Made by a program: the position numbers and the translations under genes
Part shown: in pieces, positions 4,686 through 63,935 of the stretch
Layout: every line of letters begins with the position of its first letter
How positions within the stretch are numbered: the stretch's first letter is position 1
The notes under the pieces: generated by a model
Seen by the model: the letters and a program-made list of their open reading frames with translations, nothing else
The model's database searches: none
Told to the model about the DNA's origin: nothing
Source: a virus
Taxonomy: Duplodnaviria > Caudoviricetes
Length of the DNA: 64,000 nt
IMG/VR virus record: IMGVR_UViG_3300028833_000057
Location: 203,827-267,826 of that record
Reading direction: 5' to 3' (one strand)

Positions 4686-5006
4686 CTATTTCATCATGTC
4701 TTTAATATATTCTAATGCCTTATCAAAAATCTCTTCATTTTCGCATACTCTTGTATCATAAAAAATACTTCCAGTTTCATATGCATTAGGAAATCCTAAT
4801 TCTTCGAAGTAATTCCCTGCTTTACAACGACGGGAACTTCCCTGAAAATCAAACATGAAACCATGATCAGTTTCTGATTGCCTTACATGTAAACTACAAC
4901 CTTTTGCTTCTACATTAATAGTCTTAAAAGGTGGTTGATCTATCTCATCTTTATTTTCGTCAACTTCTACTTTGAAGTATTTTGCAAGTTTATTTATATT
5001 TACCAT
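4686..5006 (-). CDS. Hypothetical early protein
   Basis: 106 aa; AGGAG RBS; TTATATTAA motif upstream at 5047-5055. Confidence 0.7.
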   Translation of the reverse strand: MVNINKLAKYFKVEVDENKDEIDQPPFKTINVEAKGCSLHVRQSETDHGFMFDFQGSSRRCKAGNYFEELGFPNAYETGSIFYDTRVCENEEIFDKALEYIKDMMK

Positions 5007-5089
5007 AATGGCTCCTGGAATATATAACGAAATTGTTATACGATATTTAATATAAAAGAGATATAGGGACTACCTATATCTCTTCTAAA

Positions 5090-5878
5090 TTATTTTTGAG
5101 GGTTTTGTTTTGCTTTTCTGACTTTTTCAAGCGCAGCAACAAACGTCTGAATTTTCTTATTAATAATTTCATATAATTCTTCAAGCTTTTCTTTATCTGC
5201 AGTCTTGAAATTTAAAGCCATAGCAAATTCAAGCTGACCAGATGTCTTAATTAATTCTTGCTTAATTCGAAGTACTACATTTCGATCTTCAATGCTTAAG
5301 GCATAATCTATGAACCCCTGCATACCATTAATAAGACTTTCAGTCATTGCAGCTAGTCTTTTATAATTCTTAAATAGATGAATTCTTTCACTTATATCCT
5401 TATTCTTTTCATCTTTTTCTTCTTCATTTTTATGTGGTTCAACATTACCCGAACCACCTGCTGGTGTAGAGCTACCACCGCCACCAGCATCTGGATCAGA
5501 TCCTTTAGTGTAATCTGGATCATTACCTTCATCACTACCAGCATCTGGGTTGCTATCATCTCCACCTGCATTGGCATCAGGATCGCTTTCAGAATCTTTA
5601 TCATTACCACCGGCATCAGGATCATTATTTTTATCATCATTGCCAGCATCAGGATCATTATCTGCGTCATCATCGTCTGCACCAGCATCTGGATCATTCG
5701 CATCTGCTTCAAGTGCATTAGAAAAAGTACTAGCAAATTCATTACTGAATTTATCTAACTCATTAGCAAAATTTATCGTTTTGGAGTTAAATAATTCCTG
5801 AATAGCATCTGAACGATCCATTTCGGACATATTCATAAAGTTGTATAAGAATTCATCATTCATAGTGTACCCTTGCAA
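5090..5878 (-). CDS. Acidic DPDAG-repeat head/scaffold-like protein
   Basis: Repeated (N/D/S)PDAG units, ALE|A protease-type site, helical C-terminus, near MCP. Confidence 0.5.
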   Translation of the reverse strand: MQGYTMNDEFLYNFMNMSEMDRSDAIQELFNSKTINFANELDKFSNEFASTFSNALEADANDPDAGADDDDADNDPDAGNDDKNNDPDAGGNDKDSESDPDANAGGDDSNPDAGSDEGNDPDYTKGSDPDAGGGGSSTPAGGSGNVEPHKNEEEKDEKNKDISERIHLFKNYKRLAAMTESLINGMQGFIDYALSIEDRNVVLRIKQELIKTSGQLEFAMALNFKTADKEKLEELYEIINKKIQTFVAALEKVRKAKQNPQK

Positions 5879-6359: not shown

Positions 6360-7838
6360 ATGAGTATGTTAACAGAATGGTATGCTCAATACCAGGCTAA
6401 AAATCCCGAAGTATTTAATGAGAATTTCATATTTAATAGAGATAAAGAAGAAAATATGAAATCCATCTTAGAATCCATAGCCATGGCTCTAGAATCTATT
6501 CCTAACATTAAGTTCACTGGCTGTGAAATTGAAGAGGACGAATCTAAGTTTACGGATTTGCATAAGATTGAAGAATCAAGATTGATCCAAGCAACCTTAT
6601 CTTTCCATATAGAGTGCGAAGATTCTGCTACAGGTGAAATTGAGAAACAAGATGTATCTATAAAATTGTTATTACCCAAGCTTATAGATAATTTCTATTA
6701 TAAGTTAAATGGGGTAAGATATTATGCCATTTATCAAATGATTGATAAAGGTACATTCAATATCAATAACGGCTACTCTCTTGGCCTCAAAACTATGTTA
6801 ATGCCGTTTATGCTAAATCGTAACGACATTGAAATTATCGACCTAGAAGGTGAAGTTCATAAGGGTCGATTAATGGAACTGGATGTTTTTAGAAGAAAAG
6901 TAAATATCCTATTATACTTTATATCTGAATGTGGTCTTGAAGAAACATTACAGTTCTTTGGTCATCATGAATCTATTAGATTAAGTGATAGACCTGAATC
7001 TGAAGAGGACGAAATAGGTTTTGAACTGCGCAAGAAATTACTTTACTTGCATGTTAAAAAAGAATTCTTAGATGAGGATAATTGGTTTGTATCTTCACTA
7101 GTTCATCTCTTTATAAAGAGCAAATGTAGTTCCATAGAAGAAGCATCTCATCCCGACTTCTGGAATTACATCTTAGGTAAAATTTATACACCAAACAAAG
7201 ACCAGGCAATTAAGAAAGCATATAAGATTCATTGTTCCGTCCGTCGTATTCTAGATAGTTGTACTGTTGAAAATATGGTACATGTTGATCCAAGAGATAA
7301 AAAATCTATCTATCATATCTTTAGATGGATGCTAATCTATTTCGATCAGTTATCTAGAGAAGACAATATGGATCTAAAGAATAAGCGCTTAAGACTTTTC
7401 GAATATATACTTTACCCGTTAACGAAAAAGCTTTCAACAGAAACGTACAGATGCTTAAATACAAAGAAACTCACAATGAAAACATTGCTGTCTATCTTTA
7501 GTAATATTAAGCCAAATCTATGTACAAGACAACTAATTACAAGCGAACTTCTTAGATATGTTAACTGTGTTAATTGCTTAGACTTATTCTCTTCTGCAAT
7601 GAAAATTACACAGAGTGGGCCTCAAGGTTTATCTAGTACAAACGTACAGACAAGATACAGAGGTCTTCATCCGTCTTATATAGGTAAAGTTGGACTTCAT
7701 GCAGCATCTGCAGGTGATCCCGGTATGGTACTGACTATGACGCCATTTGCCCAACTCGACGGTCTGTTCTTTGATAAAACGATTCAATATAGAACGGATA
7801 AGAACTTACCAGATGATATTCATCTTCTTGAGTTCTAA
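6360..7838 (+). CDS. Multisubunit RNA polymerase, beta N-terminal subunit
   Basis: LPKL..FYYKLNGVRYY.IYQ and RGLHPSYIGKV..AGDPG correspond to RpoB F.INGTERV..SQ and RDVHPTHYGRVCP..EGPNIG. Confidence 0.88.
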   Translation: MSMLTEWYAQYQAKNPEVFNENFIFNRDKEENMKSILESIAMALESIPNIKFTGCEIEEDESKFTDLHKIEESRLIQATLSFHIECEDSATGEIEKQDVSIKLLLPKLIDNFYYKLNGVRYYAIYQMIDKGTFNINNGYSLGLKTMLMPFMLNRNDIEIIDLEGEVHKGRLMELDVFRRKVNILLYFISECGLEETLQFFGHHESIRLSDRPESEEDEIGFELRKKLLYLHVKKEFLDEDNWFVSSLVHLFIKSKCSSIEEASHPDFWNYILGKIYTPNKDQAIKKAYKIHCSVRRILDSCTVENMVHVDPRDKKSIYHIFRWMLIYFDQLSREDNMDLKNKRLRLFEYILYPLTKKLSTETYRCLNTKKLTMKTLLSIFSNIKPNLCTRQLITSELLRYVNCVNCLDLFSSAMKITQSGPQGLSSTNVQTRYRGLHPSYIGKVGLHAASAGDPGMVLTMTPFAQLDGLFFDKTIQYRTDKNLPDDIHLLEF

Positions 7839-9472: not shown

Positions 9473-10654
9473 ATGGCTTCTTCTAAATGTTTTATAGAAT
9501 TAGATCCCTATATAAAAGCTTCTTTATCTAAACCTGAAAATTTAAAAAAGCTTTTAAATCATATTAGAGATTATTTAGGTAAAAATGCACAATTATTAGC
9601 AAAAGCATCAGTGGAAGAAAAACCTGGATTTTCTGTTAATGAAGATCAGCAGATAGTATTTGATTGTATGGGTATTGATAGACCTATGGTACTTGATGTT
9701 CTTACTAGAACGACGCAAAATGATGTACATAAAGGTTGGGCAGTATGGCAAGGTGAACAGTACTTGGCTTTTGCAATGTGTATTAGATATTTTGAAAAGA
9801 CAAAGAACAAGCAAGCATCACAGTTAATGCAGTTATATTTTGACATGCTTTGGTATAATGCATTGCATCGTAAGTACTTTAAGTATCCTCCAAAACATGA
9901 AGTAATGGAATATACAATTGCAAATTTATCAAATAAATATGATATTAAGCGTATTGGAAATCTTATAGGTACTTTAAGAAAAATCTCAGATAATAATCAT
10001 AAAAATGCATTATCAAGATTGTTATCTAATGAAGATGACAAGATATTTGTATATCAACGAGATCTTAGAACACGTCTTAATGGATTTATTAAAGCATTAT
10101 CTATACAATATTATGCAAACTATGAACAAGGCAATTATCTTAATGTAGATAAAGATAAAAATTCTGATGACGAAGGTAATGAATATTCAGTAGATAGAAA
10201 ATCAGATTCTGCGGCACTTTACAATGCAGCAGAAAGTTTTAGTTTATGGTTTGTTACTAATAGACTTAATGATCGTTTAGTTAAGATCTGTTCAGGAATT
10301 AGTCCTGAAATATCTCCCTTTAAATTCTCATCTGTTTTGAATGGAATTAAAGAAGATACAAAAGGTCGTTTAAAAAATATAGTTATAGGATTACTTGAAC
10401 AGCTTAGTGATATTCATGGCGATGCTACATTTAGAGCAATACATACGAAAGAGTTTCCTATATTCTGTATCCGTATGTTATCGAAATCTAATTCCAAGAA
10501 TGAATCTATAAATATGGTAAAGAATAATATAGATAGTTTACTAAATGATTATTGTAGTACATTTAAGACTACAAAAAGAGAAGCAACCAAGATTAATTAT
10601 AGAAAGGCCTTGATGTCTTATATAGCATTTGGTATTCAGCTTCAAAGAAAATAA
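9473..10654 (+). CDS. Candidate sigma-like promoter-specificity subunit of non-virion RNAP (AR9 gp226 / phiKZ gp68 type)
   Basis: 393 aa, helical and basic; YTIANLSNKYDIK segment recalls this family; lies near RNAP subunit genes; recognition from memory only. Confidence 0.45.
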   Translation: MASSKCFIELDPYIKASLSKPENLKKLLNHIRDYLGKNAQLLAKASVEEKPGFSVNEDQQIVFDCMGIDRPMVLDVLTRTTQNDVHKGWAVWQGEQYLAFAMCIRYFEKTKNKQASQLMQLYFDMLWYNALHRKYFKYPPKHEVMEYTIANLSNKYDIKRIGNLIGTLRKISDNNHKNALSRLLSNEDDKIFVYQRDLRTRLNGFIKALSIQYYANYEQGNYLNVDKDKNSDDEGNEYSVDRKSDSAALYNAAESFSLWFVTNRLNDRLVKICSGISPEISPFKFSSVLNGIKEDTKGRLKNIVIGLLEQLSDIHGDATFRAIHTKEFPIFCIRMLSKSNSKNESINMVKNNIDSLLNDYCSTFKTTKREATKINYRKALMSYIAFGIQLQRK

Positions 10655-10662
10655 ATAAAATA

Positions 10663-10816
10663 AACTAGCTTGAGTTCTCTCAAGCTAGTTTATCAACATA
10701 AGTCAAACAAAATGCAAAGGAACAATATCACAAGGAAGACATTGTTATAGGGGAAGGTCCCCTCTTATTGCTAAGAGGGGACGAATTCACCCGCCAACAA
10801 AGGAGCCATATGGCTC
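10663..10816 (-). ncRNA. Putative late antisense sRNA with anti-SD segments
   Basis: Late-type promoter at 10816-10827, 5' hairpin, internal 11-bp hairpin, terminator 10663-10690; 18-nt exact complement to RBS of gene 21924-22364. Confidence 0.6.
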
Positions 10817-10901
10817 AATTTTTAGTTATATATAACTAAAAATTTTTTATAATGTTAAATTCTTGACCTAAAAACTTCAAATTGTTTTAATAGGTTGCTT
10901 T

Positions 10902-11774
10902 ATGAACGAATTTCTTGATTTTAAAGGCGAAGTCTCGTTATATCGAGATGGAGTTTTAAAATGGACAAGAAGCAATAAGATAACTTATCAAGGTAGAGCT
11001 GCTCTTCTTAAAGGATTATCTCATTCTTTGTCTATAAATAAAACTCGTGGTAATAATTTTACGGATAGTATCGATGTAAATTCTTACCTTTGTGGCGTTG
11101 CATTTGGTTCCGGTGGTACCATGAATGGTAGCGTTCTTAATTGTAATACATCATATCATGATGTAGGGCTGTATAAGCCTGTTCCAATTAGACAATTAAA
11201 CGAGACTCAATATCGAAACGAAGATGATACCTATAAAAAAGATTTAAATAATTATATTGCTTTTGCAGATGAAAACGTAAAATATTATATAGATAATAGT
11301 CGGCAAATAGATGCAAATATAGATATTCATAAATATCTTTATTTTAAAAAGATTTCTGAGATTACATCTGTAAATTCAATGACAATGAAAGATAGCACAA
11401 ACAATTTTTCATTTGAATCTTCGTTTATAACTTTTAGTATATCTATAGATCAAAGCGATTTTAAAGTACCTAGTGCAAATGTTACATCTATAAGTGAACT
11501 TGGTTTATATCTTGGTACATTAAAATATGATGTAGCTCAGATTGAAAGAGAATCAGAAATTGATCCTGAAATAAAAGAAAAGTTTGATCCAAGACTTAGA
11601 TGTCAAGACGGTAATGACATGCTTTATCGTCAACAACAGTATGAAGCAAAAAAGCATAATTGCTCATATTTCATTAGTGGATCATTACCGGTAATGTTCT
11701 CTCATATAACTTTCCCGGCTGAAGATATACTTGAACCTAAAGATTTGACTTTTAAATACTCAATATTTGTATAA
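10902..11774 (+). CDS. Baseplate / tail-fibre attachment structural protein
   Basis: N.IT..GR...VAFGSGG...ISELGLY...FSHITFP...FKYSIF pattern typical of baseplate/tail-collar proteins. Confidence 0.6.
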   Translation: MNEFLDFKGEVSLYRDGVLKWTRSNKITYQGRAALLKGLSHSLSINKTRGNNFTDSIDVNSYLCGVAFGSGGTMNGSVLNCNTSYHDVGLYKPVPIRQLNETQYRNEDDTYKKDLNNYIAFADENVKYYIDNSRQIDANIDIHKYLYFKKISEITSVNSMTMKDSTNNFSFESSFITFSISIDQSDFKVPSANVTSISELGLYLGTLKYDVAQIERESEIDPEIKEKFDPRLRCQDGNDMLYRQQQYEAKKHNCSYFISGSLPVMFSHITFPAEDILEPKDLTFKYSIFV

Positions 11775-11783
11775 GGTGGATAT

Positions 11784-12548
11784 ATGCACGATAGTTTAAA
11801 ATTCAGAGGTGAAGTCATAGCTCGTAATAAAGCTACAGGTGAGATTCTATTTAAACAGCATAACTGTATTGTTGAAGGCGGTAGACTCATGACCTTAGCT
11901 AAAGCTATGGGTCTTGAAAATGGTAAGATGACACAGTTAGGTGCGGCTATAGATAATCCTGAATTAAAAGCTTGGTTTACTGGTATCGATCCTAATTCGG
12001 AATCTGAAGAATCTCATAGACAGGGTAACTCTGGTGATTATAGTATAATGTACTATAAAGTAGGTTATGATACTACTGATAATGGTATAAGTCATCCTTT
12101 ATCTGTAAATACACAAGCAACAGATATATCTGATCTTAGAAATTCTTGGTATGTAGATGAAGTAGATTACTTTACTACAGATGATAAGCAAAAGGATGAT
12201 ATCCCGGAACAGTATTATACTGGTGATGATAGGTATCCTTGGCCTGAAGAAGATGTTATCCAGCCTATTATTAACCAAGCTAAAGATTTTGATACTATAT
12301 TCTTAAGATATAAGTTGCCATTAAAGATGCCAGATACTAGTATTGATAATGATGATATTCATGATCTTGGTTGGCATAATGTAGACCTTACAGTTCCTTA
12401 TGTAACGGTAAACGAACTTGGGCTATTTATGTCCTGTAATGCCGAAAAAGATACGGAAAACTGGTTACTATTCTCGCTATTAAAGTTCCCTCCGATTACT
12501 CTACAGGCAGAAATGGAAGTAGAGTTCGAATATAGAATATATGGCTAA
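11784..12548 (+). CDS. Baseplate structural protein, paralog-like to 10902
   Basis: HNCIVEGGR...VNELGLF...FS.LKFP...FEYRIY, same pattern as upstream gene. Confidence 0.6.
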   Translation: MHDSLKFRGEVIARNKATGEILFKQHNCIVEGGRLMTLAKAMGLENGKMTQLGAAIDNPELKAWFTGIDPNSESEESHRQGNSGDYSIMYYKVGYDTTDNGISHPLSVNTQATDISDLRNSWYVDEVDYFTTDDKQKDDIPEQYYTGDDRYPWPEEDVIQPIINQAKDFDTIFLRYKLPLKMPDTSIDNDDIHDLGWHNVDLTVPYVTVNELGLFMSCNAEKDTENWLLFSLLKFPPITLQAEMEVEFEYRIYG

Positions 12549-13761
12549 TGTAAGAAAACAATTATCCGAAGATGGGATTAGAACCCTCTTATCGTTAAAG
12601 CACGACGATATAACGGCAGATTGGATGCGAGATAACTTTGCAGTTATAGATGGAAAACCTGCAAAATATAATTTTACTGATGAGTTTGATCTTACTGTAG
12701 AAGATGCAGAAAAAATATCTTTACCTAAAATAGATAAAGATATTACAACTACTGCAGGACGATTCTTAGTGAATTATTTTTTGCTTGGTTGTGCTGAATA
12801 TACAAAGTATTATACATTTATTAATGAGCCTTGGAATAAGAAGGTCATAGGTAAAGTTTCTGCAGCAATGTGCGATCTACTTCTAGAGCAGAAAATTACT
12901 GGATTAACTTTTGAAGACTTTATTAATAGACAACAGTGGATGGGCTTTGCATTTAACTCATGGCTTAATCCAAGTCTTACTATGGATTTCTATAAAACAC
13001 ATCCAGAAGTCCAAAGACAGCTTGAAGCAGATATTGCAGCAAATAAAGATAAAGTAGATGCTACTGATATTAACACGTGTATTGCAATTACAGATAGAGC
13101 TGTTAATAAATTCAAAGAGATAGTTAAAGACTCACCATCTGCTGACTGGCAGACATCGGGTGCAAGTAAGAATGTTCTTGCACCTATGGTTGTATGTCGT
13201 GGTTTATATGCAGAATCTAAAGACAAGAACAAATTACATTTTGTTAAATCTAATCTACAAGATGGTATCGAAAAAGATGAGATTCCAGCATACGTAGATA
13301 TTGGTATTGGCGGTGCTTGTTCCCGTGGTGTTGATACACAACAAGGTGGTTATGTTCGTAAGAAGTTTAATTCTGCATTTGCACATGTTAAGTTAGCCGA
13401 TCCTGGTACTGATTGTAAGACAAAGTATGGTCTAATGGTCTTAATTACCAAAGAAAGCAAGAGTAGAATTTATCTTAGATATTGTGAATATCAAGGTAAA
13501 GAATACTTGCTAGATAATGCCAATCTTAAGCTATTAGAAGGAAAGCTTGTAAAGCTTAGATCGCCAATGTTCTGTACTAGTGATGATATCTGTAATAAAT
13601 GTGCAGGTGAGTTCTATTATAGAATGGGTAGCCGAAATGTTGGTTTACTTGCCTCATCATTAGCTGGTGCACTACTTAATCTAGCACTTAAGGGTTTCCA
13701 TGAAGCTACGATTGCCGCAGTGGATATAAACTTAGATAAGTATGCGAGACGTATTAAATAA
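12541..13761 (+). CDS. Multisubunit RNA polymerase, beta' subunit fragment (bridge helix, Zn site, trigger loop)
   Basis: RGVDTQQGGYVRKK (bridge helix), DCKT..LRSPMFC..ICNKCAG (Zn), NVGLLAS..LALKGFH (trigger loop). Confidence 0.9.
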   Translation: MANVRKQLSEDGIRTLLSLKHDDITADWMRDNFAVIDGKPAKYNFTDEFDLTVEDAEKISLPKIDKDITTTAGRFLVNYFLLGCAEYTKYYTFINEPWNKKVIGKVSAAMCDLLLEQKITGLTFEDFINRQQWMGFAFNSWLNPSLTMDFYKTHPEVQRQLEADIAANKDKVDATDINTCIAITDRAVNKFKEIVKDSPSADWQTSGASKNVLAPMVVCRGLYAESKDKNKLHFVKSNLQDGIEKDEIPAYVDIGIGGACSRGVDTQQGGYVRKKFNSAFAHVKLADPGTDCKTKYGLMVLITKESKSRIYLRYCEYQGKEYLLDNANLKLLEGKLVKLRSPMFCTSDDICNKCAGEFYYRMGSRNVGLLASSLAGALLNLALKGFHEATIAAVDINLDKYARRIK

Positions 13762-20133: not shown

Positions 20134-21840
20134 ATGCAACTTAATGTAGGATTTGAATTATATATTAAGAAATGCAATAACATGAGGCAACAACTTATGA
20201 AATCTGAAGAATTGCAAGATGAACTTGTCATGTGGTATCCTACGAAAGTGGGTTGCTCACAAGATGAACGTGATAAGGACTACTCAACTCTTGTGGAAGA
20301 GATTACTAAATTTCCACGTGTTGCAGTTGTCAATATAATTAATAATTCTGATGGAACATTCCACACTATTGGCTTTGTACCTCTTAAGAGAGATGATAAT
20401 TTTTCAGAAGAAGATATTATCACTGGAATAGAAGATTATGCATGTCTCTATAGCGAAGATGACAGTTGTTACGATCCGGCAGAAATCTTTGATCATGAAG
20501 ATTACAGCATAGAATTCTATAATACAGAAGCAGAATCTGAACTTCAGAAAGTATTAGATTACCTCGATTGTATATTTGCATCTGAAAATTTCGAGGTAAC
20601 TATTAGCGGTACTGAAGATGAAACGGAAGAAGGATTCTGCGATACAATCAAGGAAATGAATTCGTCGTTATATTTGGCTCTTGCGGATGATCCGGATAGT
20701 GAATTAGTAATTATCGCTGCCGAAGATATTACGGAGTTTGAAAATAAAACTATAGATCATCTTCCTATTCTATTTAGTGATGTCTTCAAAAATGTTAAAT
20801 TTGCAGAAATTGGCAGTCTCAAGACTGATAAAGATGTCGTAGAAAATACGCCATATGCAAGTGAAGATTTTATTCTTGAAGATGTGCTTAGAAATAAATT
20901 TGGTGATGATTGGTATGATGAAAAATCTGGAGAAAATTCTAATGCCGATGAAGGTCCTAGCTACGGTGAAGAAGAATCTTCAGATAATGATGAATACCCA
21001 CCTGAACCAGATGAAGTACCTGAAGAAGAAAGACCAGTAGAACATCTAGTAATTACTACCGATGCCTATAAAGCCGGTAAAAATATTCAGACAGAAAATA
21101 AGAAAGAAGTTATTATAAATGTTCCTAAAATCACACACACTCAAAACCAAAAGGATATGAAAATGAACTTGTTTGGAAAGTTGAATTTCAAGCCGGTTAC
21201 GGCAGCCGTTACCTTCGATGGTCTTCTCGCCATCGATGTGAACACCAATGAAGCCGAAGCTACTCAGTACAAGGCTGTGAATGCCAACGATGAACTCGTT
21301 GACGTTCTTGACGAAACGATCGCCATGGAACTTCCTCTGTTGATGCCCGTCATGGGTCAGGCTCCGGAAGTTGGCGACTATGTCCAGCAGGGTGGCGTTT
21401 GGTACAAGATCTTGGACGACAAGACCGCTCTCAACATGGTTAACGGTACTACCGCTGGCCTGAAGATGACGTTCACTCAGTTCTTCAAGAGCTCTGTCTT
21501 CTACCGTGCCATGATCAATCCGTCCAACATGATGAGCAATGGTCTCATGATGGCTATGCTCATGAATGGTGACGGTGCCAATGGCAATTTCGACATGAAG
21601 TCGCTCATGATGCTGTCCATGATGAATGGCCAGAACGGTGATTTCATGAAGAATCCCATGTTCCTGATGTTCCTGCTTGGCGATCAGAAGGAAGGTGGCT
21701 TCGACATGAAGACGCTCGCAATGATGTCCATGTTCAATGGTGGTGCAAACCCCTTTGCTAACATGTTTGGCAATGTTGCTTCTGCAGAAAAGGCTGCTCC
21801 GGCTGCAGCTGCTCCGGCTCGTCCGAATCGCCGCAAGTAG
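20134..21840 (+). CDS. Acidic N-terminal domain plus Met-rich repeat C-terminal domain; probable internal start at 21157
   Basis: 568 aa; AAAGGA RBS before in-frame ATG 21157; codon usage shifts there. Confidence 0.7.
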   Translation: MQLNVGFELYIKKCNNMRQQLMKSEELQDELVMWYPTKVGCSQDERDKDYSTLVEEITKFPRVAVVNIINNSDGTFHTIGFVPLKRDDNFSEEDIITGIEDYACLYSEDDSCYDPAEIFDHEDYSIEFYNTEAESELQKVLDYLDCIFASENFEVTISGTEDETEEGFCDTIKEMNSSLYLALADDPDSELVIIAAEDITEFENKTIDHLPILFSDVFKNVKFAEIGSLKTDKDVVENTPYASEDFILEDVLRNKFGDDWYDEKSGENSNADEGPSYGEEESSDNDEYPPEPDEVPEEERPVEHLVITTDAYKAGKNIQTENKKEVIINVPKITHTQNQKDMKMNLFGKLNFKPVTAAVTFDGLLAIDVNTNEAEATQYKAVNANDELVDVLDETIAMELPLLMPVMGQAPEVGDYVQQGGVWYKILDDKTALNMVNGTTAGLKMTFTQFFKSSVFYRAMINPSNMMSNGLMMAMLMNGDGANGNFDMKSLMMLSMMNGQNGDFMKNPMFLMFLLGDQKEGGFDMKTLAMMSMFNGGANPFANMFGNVASAEKAAPAAAAPARPNRRK

Positions 21841-21923: not shown

Positions 21924-22364
21924 TTATTTAAGTAAGCAATCAATAATTTCCCTATATGGATTATTAATAAATGAGAAAGATTGATTATTAATAATAATAC
22001 GATCTGGGAAAATTTCCACTTGCTTATTAAATAATTTTGATATAGCTTCAAAGAATATATACGGGATTATATTCAAATTTATAGAAAGAGTATTATTTTC
22101 TATATCATCTATAACCTTCATAAATACTGCATGACTAAAATCATCTATCTTAGATTGGAATCTTTCATCTTCATCATAGATAGAAAATTCAGCATAAAAG
22201 TTTTTAAAAGGTGATATAGCTAAGCAAGAAGTATTTCCTGGTAGCTTTACTATTACTCGATCCTTATTAAATGGATTTATTCCTTCAGGGTCATAGATTT
22301 TTACTACTACACCTTTATCTTGTAAGGCTTCAAGTATTTTTTGATTTAATTCAGATATATTCAT
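21924..22364 (-). CDS. Hypothetical protein, predicted sRNA target
   Basis: 146 aa; AAAGGA RBS. Confidence 0.7.
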   Translation of the reverse strand: MNISELNQKILEALQDKGVVVKIYDPEGINPFNKDRVIVKLPGNTSCLAISPFKNFYAEFSIYDEDERFQSKIDDFSHAVFMKVIDDIENNTLSINLNIIPYIFFEAISKLFNKQVEIFPDRIIINNQSFSFINNPYREIIDCLLK

Positions 22365-22388
22365 ATTTGTTCCTTTGCATTTTGAATA

Positions 22389-25133
22389 TTATATATCCTT
22401 AGTTTCATTAGATGTACTAGAAACCATTACAGGGCCACCTACAACGCTTATAACTACATCCTTCTTATATAATGGATACTTACTTACTTCTTCAGAAGTA
22501 GGTGTTATTACTCTACAGAAAAGTTGTTCTTTAAAGGATAAACTATTCTCGTAATTTCCATATCCACCATCTTGAGGAACATTGTCAAAACGCTTATCGG
22601 TGTCGATTACTAGCATTCCATTGTTATCTAGATAGGATTTCTGATTTGCAATCTTAGTTATAGAAACTTGTACTTCATCAAGTACTCGTTCATGAGTAGT
22701 ATTGGCAAGATTTAATCCTATACGATCTGTGTCAAAATATGGTTGTGATATTTTTTTACTGGGATCGTGCAACCATGGATATTTACCAGTAAAGATATAT
22801 TCGCCTAATATTTTCTTACGGTGAATATCGCCAGTAAATATATCATGCATTTGTATAGTAGATTGGCCTTTATTTGTAAGATCATAAACTGTACCACTAC
22901 TATGTAACTGTACCGTATAAGATTTTAGGTAATCTAATAACTTTACTGCATATATGATGATATAATCTTGTAAGAATGCTTTGAAGTTTACATCTTCTGT
23001 TAATTTAGTTTTCTTTCCATTAGGGGGAGGACTATAAACATATACATCTGATAGAGTATACATTATATCATCATATAGATTCATTAGTAGATCCATTCTA
23101 GTTTTCTTATCACCTAGAATTGCATCTGCAATTTTATTATATGCCTTAGGATGATTCAATATGAGATATTCCTCTATAGACATATTCTCATAATAACCAT
23201 ATCTATTTGAAAATTCATTTCTAGATTCAAATAGTGCTTCTTCATTCTTTATTAGAAGGGCGTGTTCAATTATAGTCTTTAGCCAAGGTACATGCTTAAA
23301 CTTATCGACTTCAATATTATTATCTTTAAGCCATGAATATAATATTTCTGCATATGAATCTTCATGACCAGTTGGCGAGACTAATGACCTATTTTCATAG
23401 TACCTATTTATTTTTGATATCAGCGATGATAGTAGAGCATCGGCAGGAAATTCTTCAGAGTTTTCTGGGATATCTATTCCGGTAATATCATCATCATCGT
23501 AAGATACTGCCATTAAAGCATTATTTAAGCCCTTGAGTACCTCAAAGTTATCTTTAAAATGTTGAGCAAATCCATAGTACAAGAAGTTATTATTACTTTT
23601 TGTACTCTTTAAAGATGAGTCAAATTCATAATCCTCTTTCTGCCAATAATTATAATTATTTTTATTGTATACGTCTAAAGTAAGGCTCTTGTACTTATTA
23701 TTTTCTTTATATACATTATTTAAGTCATATAAGTACGTAGCTAATACAGTAGATATATTCTTTGCATTTGGAGGAATATCATCGGATATATTGGTATCGA
23801 TATTCATCTTTGTAAGATATAATGCACAGGCAAATAATCCGAATAAATCAAGTGAAGGATCTTTTAATGAATTTGATCTTATTGGGAAACTATTTTTTGT
23901 TTCGTGAAGCATGCTAAAGAATAATAGAAGACCTTGGACATCAGGAATATTAGCTATTTCAGTATTTATAGCTATATATTTAGATTCAATGTAAGATCTA
24001 TCTCCTATTTTATCTTTAACTACATCGGCATCATAAGACTGATTCCAATATGCATCTTTACTAGTTATATCTTCGAAAGGTATCTTTATGATATCTTCGG
24101 CAGGAGTTTCCCCTAGATATTTTTCTACATCATATACATCATATGGAACTTTTACAAAGTAAAGATTTGCACTTTCTTTATGTTCTTTATACTCTTCATA
24201 AGACATTGTACCATTATTAAACGCTTCTTTCTCAGATTCACTAAATCCTAGATCACGGCACAAATAGTATTTGTATATTTTAGCAATATTATTATTAAAA
24301 ATGTCTTCTGTTATGATTTTATATACATTATCTGTACCCTTATTCTTAATAAGAGCACGAATATTACGTAATACTCTTAACTGGAATTCCAGTGGAAGAT
24401 CATTTAGGAATGTAATACCGAAACTGTATAGTGCATTTCTTATATCATACTGATCAAGTAGATCGTAGCTAAATTGTTTTTGTAATTCAGTATCTAAATA
24501 TGAGAATATTGTCATTAATGTAATAAACAGGCAGTTAAATTTACGATGCATATCATCATACATTGATGCCTGGTTTTCCATTACACTTGCAAACCATTCT
24601 CTATTTTCAGTATAGAGATCTAAGAAAACTTCTGCGTTTACATCTTCCGGTAAATAATTCTCATCATAGTCAAGAATAGAATAATCTTTAGCATTTCTAG
24701 TGGTCATTATATCTAGGCCATAGTAACAATATAATCCACGATAATATGCATTAAGCTCAAAGATATTCCCCATATATGGTGGATCAACCATCTGCTTATT
24801 CTTATTATGAACCGATCCTCTAACTTCTTTAAACCGCGACTCACTATCTGCTACATATTTAGTATTAAGCTCATATGCGTCAATAAAGAATTGCTGACCA
24901 TCGGGCATTAAGTTATATTCATTAAGATCTTCAGGAAAACCTTTCCTATCGTATTTATAGATATATGGTAAAGAATCATTTCTGCAGGATATATAATAGT
25001 TACTAAGTTCTACTGACTCTGGAGTTTCATAGCTATTGGCTAGATTCTGATTTTTAAATAAAAAGGTTTTCGCCCAGTTTATTAGATCTTTAAGCTTTTT
25101 AGCTTGTCTTTCTTCATATACGGCTCTTGACAT
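22389..25133 (-). CDS. Large virion protein, probably baseplate wedge
   Basis: 914 aa; LYSFG..LP...LRNIRALIKNKGT motif; late-type promoter at 25160-25171. Confidence 0.55.
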   Translation of the reverse strand: MSRAVYEERQAKKLKDLINWAKTFLFKNQNLANSYETPESVELSNYYISCRNDSLPYIYKYDRKGFPEDLNEYNLMPDGQQFFIDAYELNTKYVADSESRFKEVRGSVHNKNKQMVDPPYMGNIFELNAYYRGLYCYYGLDIMTTRNAKDYSILDYDENYLPEDVNAEVFLDLYTENREWFASVMENQASMYDDMHRKFNCLFITLMTIFSYLDTELQKQFSYDLLDQYDIRNALYSFGITFLNDLPLEFQLRVLRNIRALIKNKGTDNVYKIITEDIFNNNIAKIYKYYLCRDLGFSESEKEAFNNGTMSYEEYKEHKESANLYFVKVPYDVYDVEKYLGETPAEDIIKIPFEDITSKDAYWNQSYDADVVKDKIGDRSYIESKYIAINTEIANIPDVQGLLLFFSMLHETKNSFPIRSNSLKDPSLDLFGLFACALYLTKMNIDTNISDDIPPNAKNISTVLATYLYDLNNVYKENNKYKSLTLDVYNKNNYNYWQKEDYEFDSSLKSTKSNNNFLYYGFAQHFKDNFEVLKGLNNALMAVSYDDDDITGIDIPENSEEFPADALLSSLISKINRYYENRSLVSPTGHEDSYAEILYSWLKDNNIEVDKFKHVPWLKTIIEHALLIKNEEALFESRNEFSNRYGYYENMSIEEYLILNHPKAYNKIADAILGDKKTRMDLLMNLYDDIMYTLSDVYVYSPPPNGKKTKLTEDVNFKAFLQDYIIIYAVKLLDYLKSYTVQLHSSGTVYDLTNKGQSTIQMHDIFTGDIHRKKILGEYIFTGKYPWLHDPSKKISQPYFDTDRIGLNLANTTHERVLDEVQVSITKIANQKSYLDNNGMLVIDTDKRFDNVPQDGGYGNYENSLSFKEQLFCRVITPTSEEVSKYPLYKKDVVISVVGGPVMVSSTSNETKDI

Positions 25134-63492: not shown

Positions 63493-63557
63493 AAAAATAA
63501 ACACATAGCCCGAAGGCTATGTGTTTACTCGTTTAACCCAATAAGGAGGTATTCCTC
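63493..63557 (-). ncRNA. Putative ~65-nt late sRNA with perfect anti-SD
   Basis: Promoter identical to that at 10814-10829; contains ACCUCCUUA; 13-bp terminator stem with UUCG loop. Confidence 0.55.
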
Positions 63558-63566
63558 AATTTTTAG

Positions 63567-63935
63567 TTATTGCTGTGGTGCATTTGCCTTTTCAGCCTTT
63601 TTAATGGCTGCGGACAAACTGCCTTCATATAAATTGCCGGAACTTACAACGATAGACTTAGCTTTACCCCAATATTTTGCACGAAGTCTAGCTCTCCATA
63701 CACGAGAAAGCTTAAAGAACTTCACAAACTTATAGTATAGGATATCATTATTCTGCTTGGCAAGAAGCATACACACTTTAGCAATACGTTTATCCATAAT
63801 AGACTTAGTATCCCAAGTTTGACGCTTGATCTTAATACCTTCAGAAGCAAGCATATCCATTTCTTCTGGTGTAATATCTGATAGAATTTCTTTCAGAAGC
63901 ATTTCATTCTGTGCAGAGAGTTCTGTATCTTTCAT
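63567..63935 (-). CDS. Putative processed head protein
   Basis: Acidic propeptide ending ASE|G, followed by a basic domain. Confidence 0.5.
   Translation of the reverse strand: MKDTELSAQNEMLLKEILSDITPEEMDMLASEGIKIKRQTWDTKSIMDKRIAKVCMLLAKQNNDILYYKFVKFFKLSRVWRARLRAKYWGKAKSIVVSSGNLYEGSLSAAIKKAEKANAPQQ

Follow-up and report, generated by a model that had tools for sequence, protein, structure and literature searches.

Antisense RNAs that block the translation of phage genes by pairing with ribosome-binding sites are known from P1 and P7 (c4 RNA) and from P22 (sar RNA). These RNAs come from the operon of their target or overlap the target, and their role in the temperate phages concerned is immunity (ant control). 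For jumbo phages with two multisubunit RNA polymerases (RNAPs), temporal control is, to our knowledge, understood almost wholly at the promoter level, and the sRNAs of these phages come without a target or a mechanism. In the Pseudomonas jumbo phages 201phi2-1 and phiKZ, sRNAs have been mapped that derive mostly from 5'-UTRs, for example before a tail gene, and one of them, of unknown function, is conserved in position and fold across genera (PMC11512511). In phage AR9, the late promoter consensus has been defined experimentally as AACA-(6N)-T(A/G)+1, and some late promoters drive non-mRNA transcription antisense to genes (PMC5312081).

The window analysed here is the final 64 kb of a single contig of 267,826 bp (G+C 33.5%), a record rated 100% complete by CheckV. 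Metagenome runs containing DNA of this phage come from sheep gut and bovine gut. Of the named phages, AR9, PBS1 and the Staphylococcus S6 group come closest, with a protein identity of only ~32%; a DNA search of the phage GenBank collection gave no match, near or distant. Among the flanking genes is a split multisubunit RNAP beta subunit (phrog_2962), whose AR9 homologue is annotated as a virion RNAP subunit. As the synteny around this gene is absent in AR9, the published AR9 TSS cannot be transferred to the locus described below, which occupies the spacer at 10655-10901 between genes 9473-10654 and 10902-11774.

A candidate RNA gene behind a late-type promoter

A sequence-only reading of this DNA had placed a late-type promoter on the minus strand of the spacer, and AACTAAAAATTG at 10816-10827 does follow the AR9 late grammar. 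The site reads AACT-AAAAAT-TG and matches the AR9 late consensus, which makes it a member of the AR9-type late (non-virion RNAP) class; the predicted TSS is the last G, at 10816. Genome-wide, AAC[AT]N5TTG has 69 copies, 31 of them in the 8% that is intergenic. Nearly all of the intergenic copies stand 15-36 nt 5' of a same-strand ATG, and the motif is found before the 914-aa virion structural gene, genes of 1370-2129 aa and the virion-RNAP operon at 10902. Judged from the sequence, AAC[AT]N5TTG is a true promoter class, and we infer that its timing is late. The copy at 10816-10827 is among the very few late-type motifs with no gene behind them, the next minus-strand start being 1.5 kb away. 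Outside the window, at genome position 134203 (minus strand), a further ORF-less motif of this type lies just 5' of the tRNA-like sequence GCTCAGCTGG, so late promoters may drive tRNA genes too. Facing in the opposite direction, 45 bp from the sRNA promoter, the late-type promoter AACTTCAAATTG (10873-10884, plus strand) serves the operon 10902-13761 that includes the virion-RNAP beta homologue; this divergent late pair is found in all close relatives. A second promoter class, TATATTAA, resembles the AR9 early element; it has 107 copies (73 intergenic) and stands before 66 genes, including the polymerase-like gene 6360-7838.

The spacer very probably holds a minus-strand non-coding RNA gene of ~165 nt, running from 10816 to ~10652. 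The predicted fold has four elements. A 5' hairpin comes first, then a long hairpin that has a closing stem; the third is a hairpin whose loop contains UUCCUUGU, and the last is a terminator. The 5' hairpin (GAGCC-AUAU-GGCUC; 10803-10816, RNA nt 1-14) leads into the conserved stretch CUCCUUUGUUGGCGGGUGAA (10786-10805), which comprises anti-SD 1 and the core GGUGGGUGAA. The long hairpin, hairpin 2, has an 11-bp stem (10757-10782). Hairpin 3 of the MFE fold (10721-10746) presents anti-SD 2 in its loop and is followed by the 18-nt segment UUGUUCCUUUGCAUUUUG (10708-10725, RNA nt 92-109), which is mostly single-stranded and belongs to the variable part of the RNA. The further anti-SD segments that had been pointed out before are present, CUCCUUUGUUG at RNA nt 12-22 and UUCCUUGUG at nt 80-88, and in this clade the variable 3' extension bears two further UCCUU motifs. 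At the proposed end of the RNA, a 16-bp hairpin (10659-10694) is followed on the minus strand by the good U-tract UUAUUUAUUUUCUU; this terminator (10645-10694 in all), also part of the earlier description, is common to the convergent gene 9473-10654.

The unit has its own promoter and its own terminator, as expected of an independent gene. It is intergenic, and its overlap with gene 9473-10654 is confined to the stop codon of that gene and the terminator common to both, which is not the arrangement of a cis-antisense RNA. No second full copy was found in the genome. Behind the identical promoter word AACTAAAAATTGAG, a second unit of ~65 nt at 63495-63568 (minus strand) begins with the 5' hairpin GAGG-AAUA-CCUC, continues with CUUAUUGGGUUAAACGAG and ends in a strong terminator. 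This unit has the layout and the CCUCCUU word in common with the sRNA and is not found by the covariance model described below; it may be a short paralogue.

Phage sequences are contained in two sheep-gut metatranscriptome runs, X3 and X4. Their cover is very uneven, with a depth of 112 and 60 over gene 20134-21840 and of ~2-7 elsewhere, which argues for real phage RNA in those samples. Over 10282-11163 the cover is low, in data given as contigs and coarse bins, a format too coarse for a 165-nt RNA, its strand or its ends. Gene 20134-21840 (plus strand; 568 aa, no known family) is the most represented part of the stretch in both metatranscriptomes. Its annotated ATG directly adjoins the word TATATTAAAT, and the true start or the TSS may therefore lie elsewhere.

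Conservation, covariation and strand

Homologues of the neighbour gene 9473-10654 occur in metagenome assemblies at 52-93% protein identity, and in all syntenic relatives fetched the homologue is followed by a spacer of ~200-270 bp. The sRNA element is present at the same site in nine distinct phages (the source phage and eight relatives), with lengths of 70-165 nt. Common to these spacers are the minus-strand promoter word, kept as AACWNNNNNTTGRG, a 5' hairpin with compensatory changes, the invariant CUCCUUUG(UU)GGUGGGUGAA and the long hairpin, for which six different stem sequences occur. The 5' hairpin varies as GAGCU/AGCUC, GAGGC/GCCUC, GAGAC/GUCUC and GGGGCG/CGUCUC, the last with two G.U pairs. 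The CUCCUUUGUUGGCGGGUGAA stretch forms invariant columns in alignments A2, A3 and A4, and anti-SD 2 is preserved among the relatives as YCUCCUU. Two relatives, L005 and L010, have a minimal unit of ~70 nt that lacks the 3' extension carrying the 18-mer. In L010, the most distant relative, a minus-strand U-tract directly follows the long hairpin, so that this hairpin is the terminator there. A terminator with its better U-tract on the minus strand is arranged in the same way in L001, L002, L003 and L006.

A covariance model built on the six close sequences alone recovered the four distant members, on the minus strand only (E = 1e-5 to 5e-3); it had no other match in the window, in the remaining genome or in AR9. 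In the alignment, which was fitted to the model, 14 of 22 pairs are compensatory with both sides changed (10 of 11 in the long hairpin), and 92% of the cells are paired overall, 100% in hairpin 2. The observed covariation measures were reached by none of 500 shuffles, and controls with slid partners lost the signal. The element thus has a conserved structure of the kind looked for in trans-encoded base-pairing sRNAs. RNAalifold on MAFFT alignments missed hairpin 2 because the distant members were misaligned, and model R1 was dropped. Rfam gave no match at gathering thresholds, the best permissive scores being those of rimP (22.3 vs 47) and RsaE (15 vs 79). A protein pattern search of IMG/VR gave no match, and 19 matches to a DNA pattern in the same collection were all unrelated and attributed to chance; a pattern scan of JGI metagenomes returned five true matches, identical to known variants, and one chance match.

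When the helices of the relatives are read as minus strand, they contain seven G.U pairs and no A.C pairs, the form in which plus-strand G.U pairs would appear. The MFE is lower for the minus strand in nine of nine phages; z-scores against shuffles are similar for both strands and do not separate them. Good U-tracts after the terminators lie on the minus strand. A 9-codon mini-ORF on the plus strand is not conserved, its ATG being ATA in L002 and absent in L003 and L006, and minus-strand ATGs are not conserved in the relatives either. The G.U asymmetry, the MFE, the U-tracts and the unconserved mini-ORF together suggest that the element is read as a minus-strand non-coding RNA.

Complementarity to phage TIRs

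The 18-nt identity on which the sequence-only reading had been built is confirmed: plus-strand 10708-10725 (CAAAATGCAAAGGAACAA) is the exact reverse complement of 22367-22384, in the leader of gene 21924-22364 (minus strand). The predicted pairing comprises 18 contiguous base pairs over the SD, a 1-nt bulge and three more pairs into the AUG. The TIR involved is a spacer of only 24 nt (22365-22388, minus strand), and the gene, the proposed target, encodes 146 aa directly 3' of the 914-aa virion structural gene 22389-25133. The protein belongs to no known family and has no PHROG or Pfam match. A word-based protein search had left it as an ORFan; this status was overturned by tblastn, which detected a homologue of 36% identity at the same position in relative L038, and by an exhaustive profile search, which added further members of the family. 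As homologues with 36-39% identity occupy the same place in relatives, 21924-22364 is a real gene.

As a bare repeat the 18-mer is ordinary, since the 268-kb genome has ~21 distant inverted and ~32 distant direct exact repeats of at least 18 nt. Complementarity was assessed for the 164-nt RNA against 307 TIRs. A match of 18 nt was reached by none of 5000 composition shuffles and by none of 5000 shuffles in which the three anti-SD cores were kept fixed, the maximum being 17. Under a harsher null, two of 46,971 TIR pairs share at least 18 nt; as TIR-like sequences resemble each other, this gives a conservative p of ~0.04. The hybrid energy at the target TIR is -28.3, with a net value of ~-15.0 kcal/mol after a crude correction for opening costs. 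On this corrected scale it ranks first of the 307 TIRs (-15.0 vs -9.9 kcal/mol for the next), so that the distant ribosome-binding region singled out earlier is also the best predicted target in the genome.

Conservation does not extend to the 18-nt segment itself, which differs even where the neighbour gene is 90-93% identical. Co-variation of sRNA and target in related phages had been proposed as a check; the TIRs of target homologues in relatives do complement the sRNA family. In L038, the TIR of the homologue (ACCAACAAAGGAGC) is exactly complementary over 14 nt to the conserved 5' part of L038's own sRNA and is the sole TIR with a complement of at least 12 nt in that 14-kb locus. In L041/L042, the TIR AACAAAGGAGCTATATG matches known sRNA variants over 11-16 contiguous bases, the cognate variant not being assignable; with one G.U allowed, there are 17 pairs, which run through the AUG. 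The same leader contains, ~20 nt farther 5', the word CACCCACCAA, complementary to the invariant core. The stretch CUCCUUUGUUGGCGGGUGAA complements both the target-homologue TIRs in L038 and L041 and a stereotyped TIR of the genome, AACAAAGGAGCCAT. Altogether, all three retrievable target-family TIRs are complementary to the sRNA family, though not all to the same part of the RNA; the TIRs of L038 and L041 are alike and were counted as about one independent replicate. These observations give hints that the RNA-target pairing may be maintained while the pairing site moves in evolution. No covariation with the respective sRNA was seen for the TIRs of HU-like genes in L005, L006 and L010.

Complementarity extends beyond this gene family. 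Fifteen TIRs have a complement of at least 10 nt to the sRNA, compared with a mean of 3.3 and a maximum of 10 in shuffles and with two for the opposite strand; the RNA complements the TIRs of distant genes beyond chance, as an accessible seed would. Of 66 early-class TIRs, five have complements of at least 11 nt, vs one of the 240 others (p = 0.002, Fisher); the 35 late-class genes have none. A stereotyped TIR, AAAGGAGCCAT(N)ATG, precedes eight or more unrelated genes, among which no paralogy was found. The early-gene matches span 9-14 nt and involve RNA nt 5-21; here half of anti-SD 1 is hidden in the 5' hairpin and the closing stem, and opening would cost ~15 kcal/mol. As an example, the TIR of gene 4686-5006, AGGAGCCATTATG (5004-5018, minus strand), fits the 5' region of the sRNA, and the weak match reported earlier for this leader (AGGAGCCAT-ATGG vs AGGAGCCATTATGG) is present. 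Upstream of this TIR are TATATTAAAT, of the early-like promoter class, and a small UTR hairpin. An early-type cassette, common to these genes, with the order terminator, CGTAAATTTCTATG, TATATTAAAT, small 5'-UTR hairpin RTAACAATTNNGTTAY and stereotyped TIR AACAAAGGAGCCATTATG is found at 5007-5100 (minus strand) and at ~10 sites elsewhere, for example at genome positions 92286-92380 and 88443-88540, before small genes with no relation to each other. It recalls the mobile promoter-stem-loop cassettes known from T4-type phages. There could also be reasons unrelated to the sRNA for the stereotyped early TIR, for instance that it is part of a repeated promoter-UTR-RBS cassette. A broader role of the sRNA on early genes is plausible, but appears rather doubtful to us on this sequence evidence.

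The proposal that the RNA shuts off earlier genes late in infection accordingly fared unevenly. The early-class TIRs are enriched as described; the top target lies in a late operon. Being only 24 nt behind the 914-aa virion gene, which has a late-type promoter, gene 21924-22364 is probably a late cistron, not an earlier gene, and by its position probably the distal cistron of the late virion operon. Outside the window, at genome positions 154528-154560 (minus strand), the leader of a 79-aa gene (154288-154527) reads CAAAATGCAAGGAG and has the word CAAAATGCAA in common with the 18-mer and the target leader. It is possibly a further target or a relic of leader exchange.

Proposed action, rival readings and known systems

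Several stretches of the sRNA mirror ribosome-binding sites, and the RNA therefore probably blocks the translation of chosen phage genes late in infection. According to our model, the late (non-virion) phage RNAP most likely transcribes it from AACTAAAAATTG with G 10816 as the first base, and transcription would stop at the hairpin 10694-10659 and its U-tract. The product would consist of the 5' hairpin, a pyrimidine-rich stretch with GGYGGGUGAA, the covarying long hairpin and a variable 3' extension. Acting in trans, this 'anti-TIR' RNA would pair through exposed CU-rich stretches with the SD-to-AUG region of phage mRNAs and bar the 30S subunit from them. The 146-aa gene 21924-22364 would be the prime target; given its place as the distal cistron of the late virion operon, the RNA would lower its translation relative to that of the 914-aa protein. 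Early-class genes bearing the stereotyped TIR AACAAAGGAGCCAUUAUG might be weaker secondary targets. Transcription, pairing in vivo and repression are proposed here from the anatomy, conservation, strand, promoter class and complementarity statistics, and we consider action by TIR pairing on the 146-aa gene family to have a slightly better than even chance of being correct. A wider version, in which the RNA, together with its look-alike at 63495-63568, would be a global 'anti-TIR' switch, made by the late polymerase, for the AACAAAGGAGCCAUUAUG modules of a cassette-like class of early genes and for dedicated late targets, seems unlikely. If true, it would mean an RNA-based early-to-late translational shut-off across a whole clade of AR9-like jumbo phages, with target sites free to shift between parts of the RNA in evolution (site switching).

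The same unit might instead be a real RNA gene that does not work by pairing with TIRs. Its GGUGGGUGAA and hairpins would then contact a protein or the machinery of translation or transcription; it might serve, for instance, as a decoy or scaffold or imitate the 3' end of 16S rRNA, and its complementarity to TIRs would simply follow from its CU-rich composition. The most conserved part of the RNA, CUCCUUUG..GGUGGGUGAA with the two hairpins, fits this, as nothing in this genome apart from the SD-like word is an extended target for it; pairing of GGUGGGUGAA with a tRNA 3' end, or mimicry of part of 16S rRNA, is conceivable. The 70-nt forms in L005 and L010, which do without the 18-mer extension, and the unit at 63495-63568, with its 5' hairpin and CCUCCUUA in the same layout, point in the same direction. 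However, none of the 5000 shuffles that keep the anti-SD cores reached 18 nt, all three retrievable target-family TIRs complement the sRNA family, and one target-family leader even bears CACCCACCAA, the complement of the core. We regard it as a possible, clearly less probable account than TIR pairing on the 146-aa gene family.

Two further explanations dispense with a minus-strand RNA altogether. The spacer might be DNA-level punctuation, made up of tandem terminators for gene 9473-10654, divergent promoters and a decayed copy of a TIR cassette, and the 18-mer a leader remnant left by recombination or duplication. Its plus strand does resemble three RBS-like words followed by an ATG, the genome has ~50 exact repeats of at least 18 nt, often in regulatory DNA, identities of 18 nt without any antisense logic occur in two other TIR pairs, and terminator hairpins covary as well. 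A remnant would not be expected, however, to keep the sequence between the hairpins invariant down to 52% identity of the neighbour protein, nor does punctuation account for a late promoter conserved in its exact place and orientation with no gene for 1.5 kb, for a G.U asymmetry of seven to none, or for hairpin 2, which has no plus-strand U-tract; the mini-ORF is not kept. This makes punctuation improbable in our view. Still less credible, and in fact very improbable, is a functional plus strand that would be reached by read-through from 9473-10654 and titrate ribosomes or a CsrA-like protein as an SD-rich decoy or as the leader of the 9-codon mini-ORF. The words CAAAGGAAC, ACAAGGAAG and AACAAAGGAGCC do precede an ATG on that strand, the plus-strand U-tract of the upstream terminator is weak, and AAUUUUU follows the small hairpin 10803-10816 on the plus strand. 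Yet the spacer offers such a transcript no plus-strand promoter of either class, the ATG of the presumed leader is lost in L002, L003 and L006, every wobble position becomes a C.A mismatch on the plus strand, the plus-strand MFE is the weaker one in each of the nine phages, and the distant members are recovered by the covariance model on the minus strand only. The minus-strand RNA that pairs with the TIR of the 146-aa gene is therefore the reading that we prefer.

By its proposed mechanism, the RNA would be an ordinary trans-encoded sRNA that covers ribosome-binding sites. What is new is the sRNA family, its occurrence in AR9-like rumen phages that form an uncultured clade, the late promoter and a concrete phage target. 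The case supplies a conserved family with a clear promoter class, a concrete top target and hints of a moving pairing site, and it makes post-transcriptional control in such phages directly testable; the covariance model can be used to find the family in rumen viromes.

Among bacterial sRNAs, the RNA resembles the RsaE/RoxS type of Firmicutes (RF01820) in being a separate gene equipped with a promoter and an intrinsic terminator of its own, and in carrying several pyrimidine-rich motifs, looped or single-stranded, with predicted SD-AUG pairing on several mRNAs. In contrast to RsaE/RoxS, with which it has no homology in sequence or structure (15 bits with the RsaE model vs a gathering threshold of 79), it resides in a lytic-type jumbo phage, is preceded by a phage-polymerase promoter and has predicted phage targets. 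It differs from c4 and sar in that its proposed target lies 11.7 kb away and in that it has its own late promoter in an AR9-like jumbo phage. With the sRNAs of 201phi2-1 and phiKZ it has in common that these are small non-coding transcripts of jumbo phages with their own multisubunit RNAPs, whereas for those sRNAs neither a target nor an anti-SD logic has been put forward (PMC11512511). With AR9 it shares the late promoter grammar; the transcripts described there do not include an intergenic trans-acting sRNA such as the one proposed here (PMC5312081).
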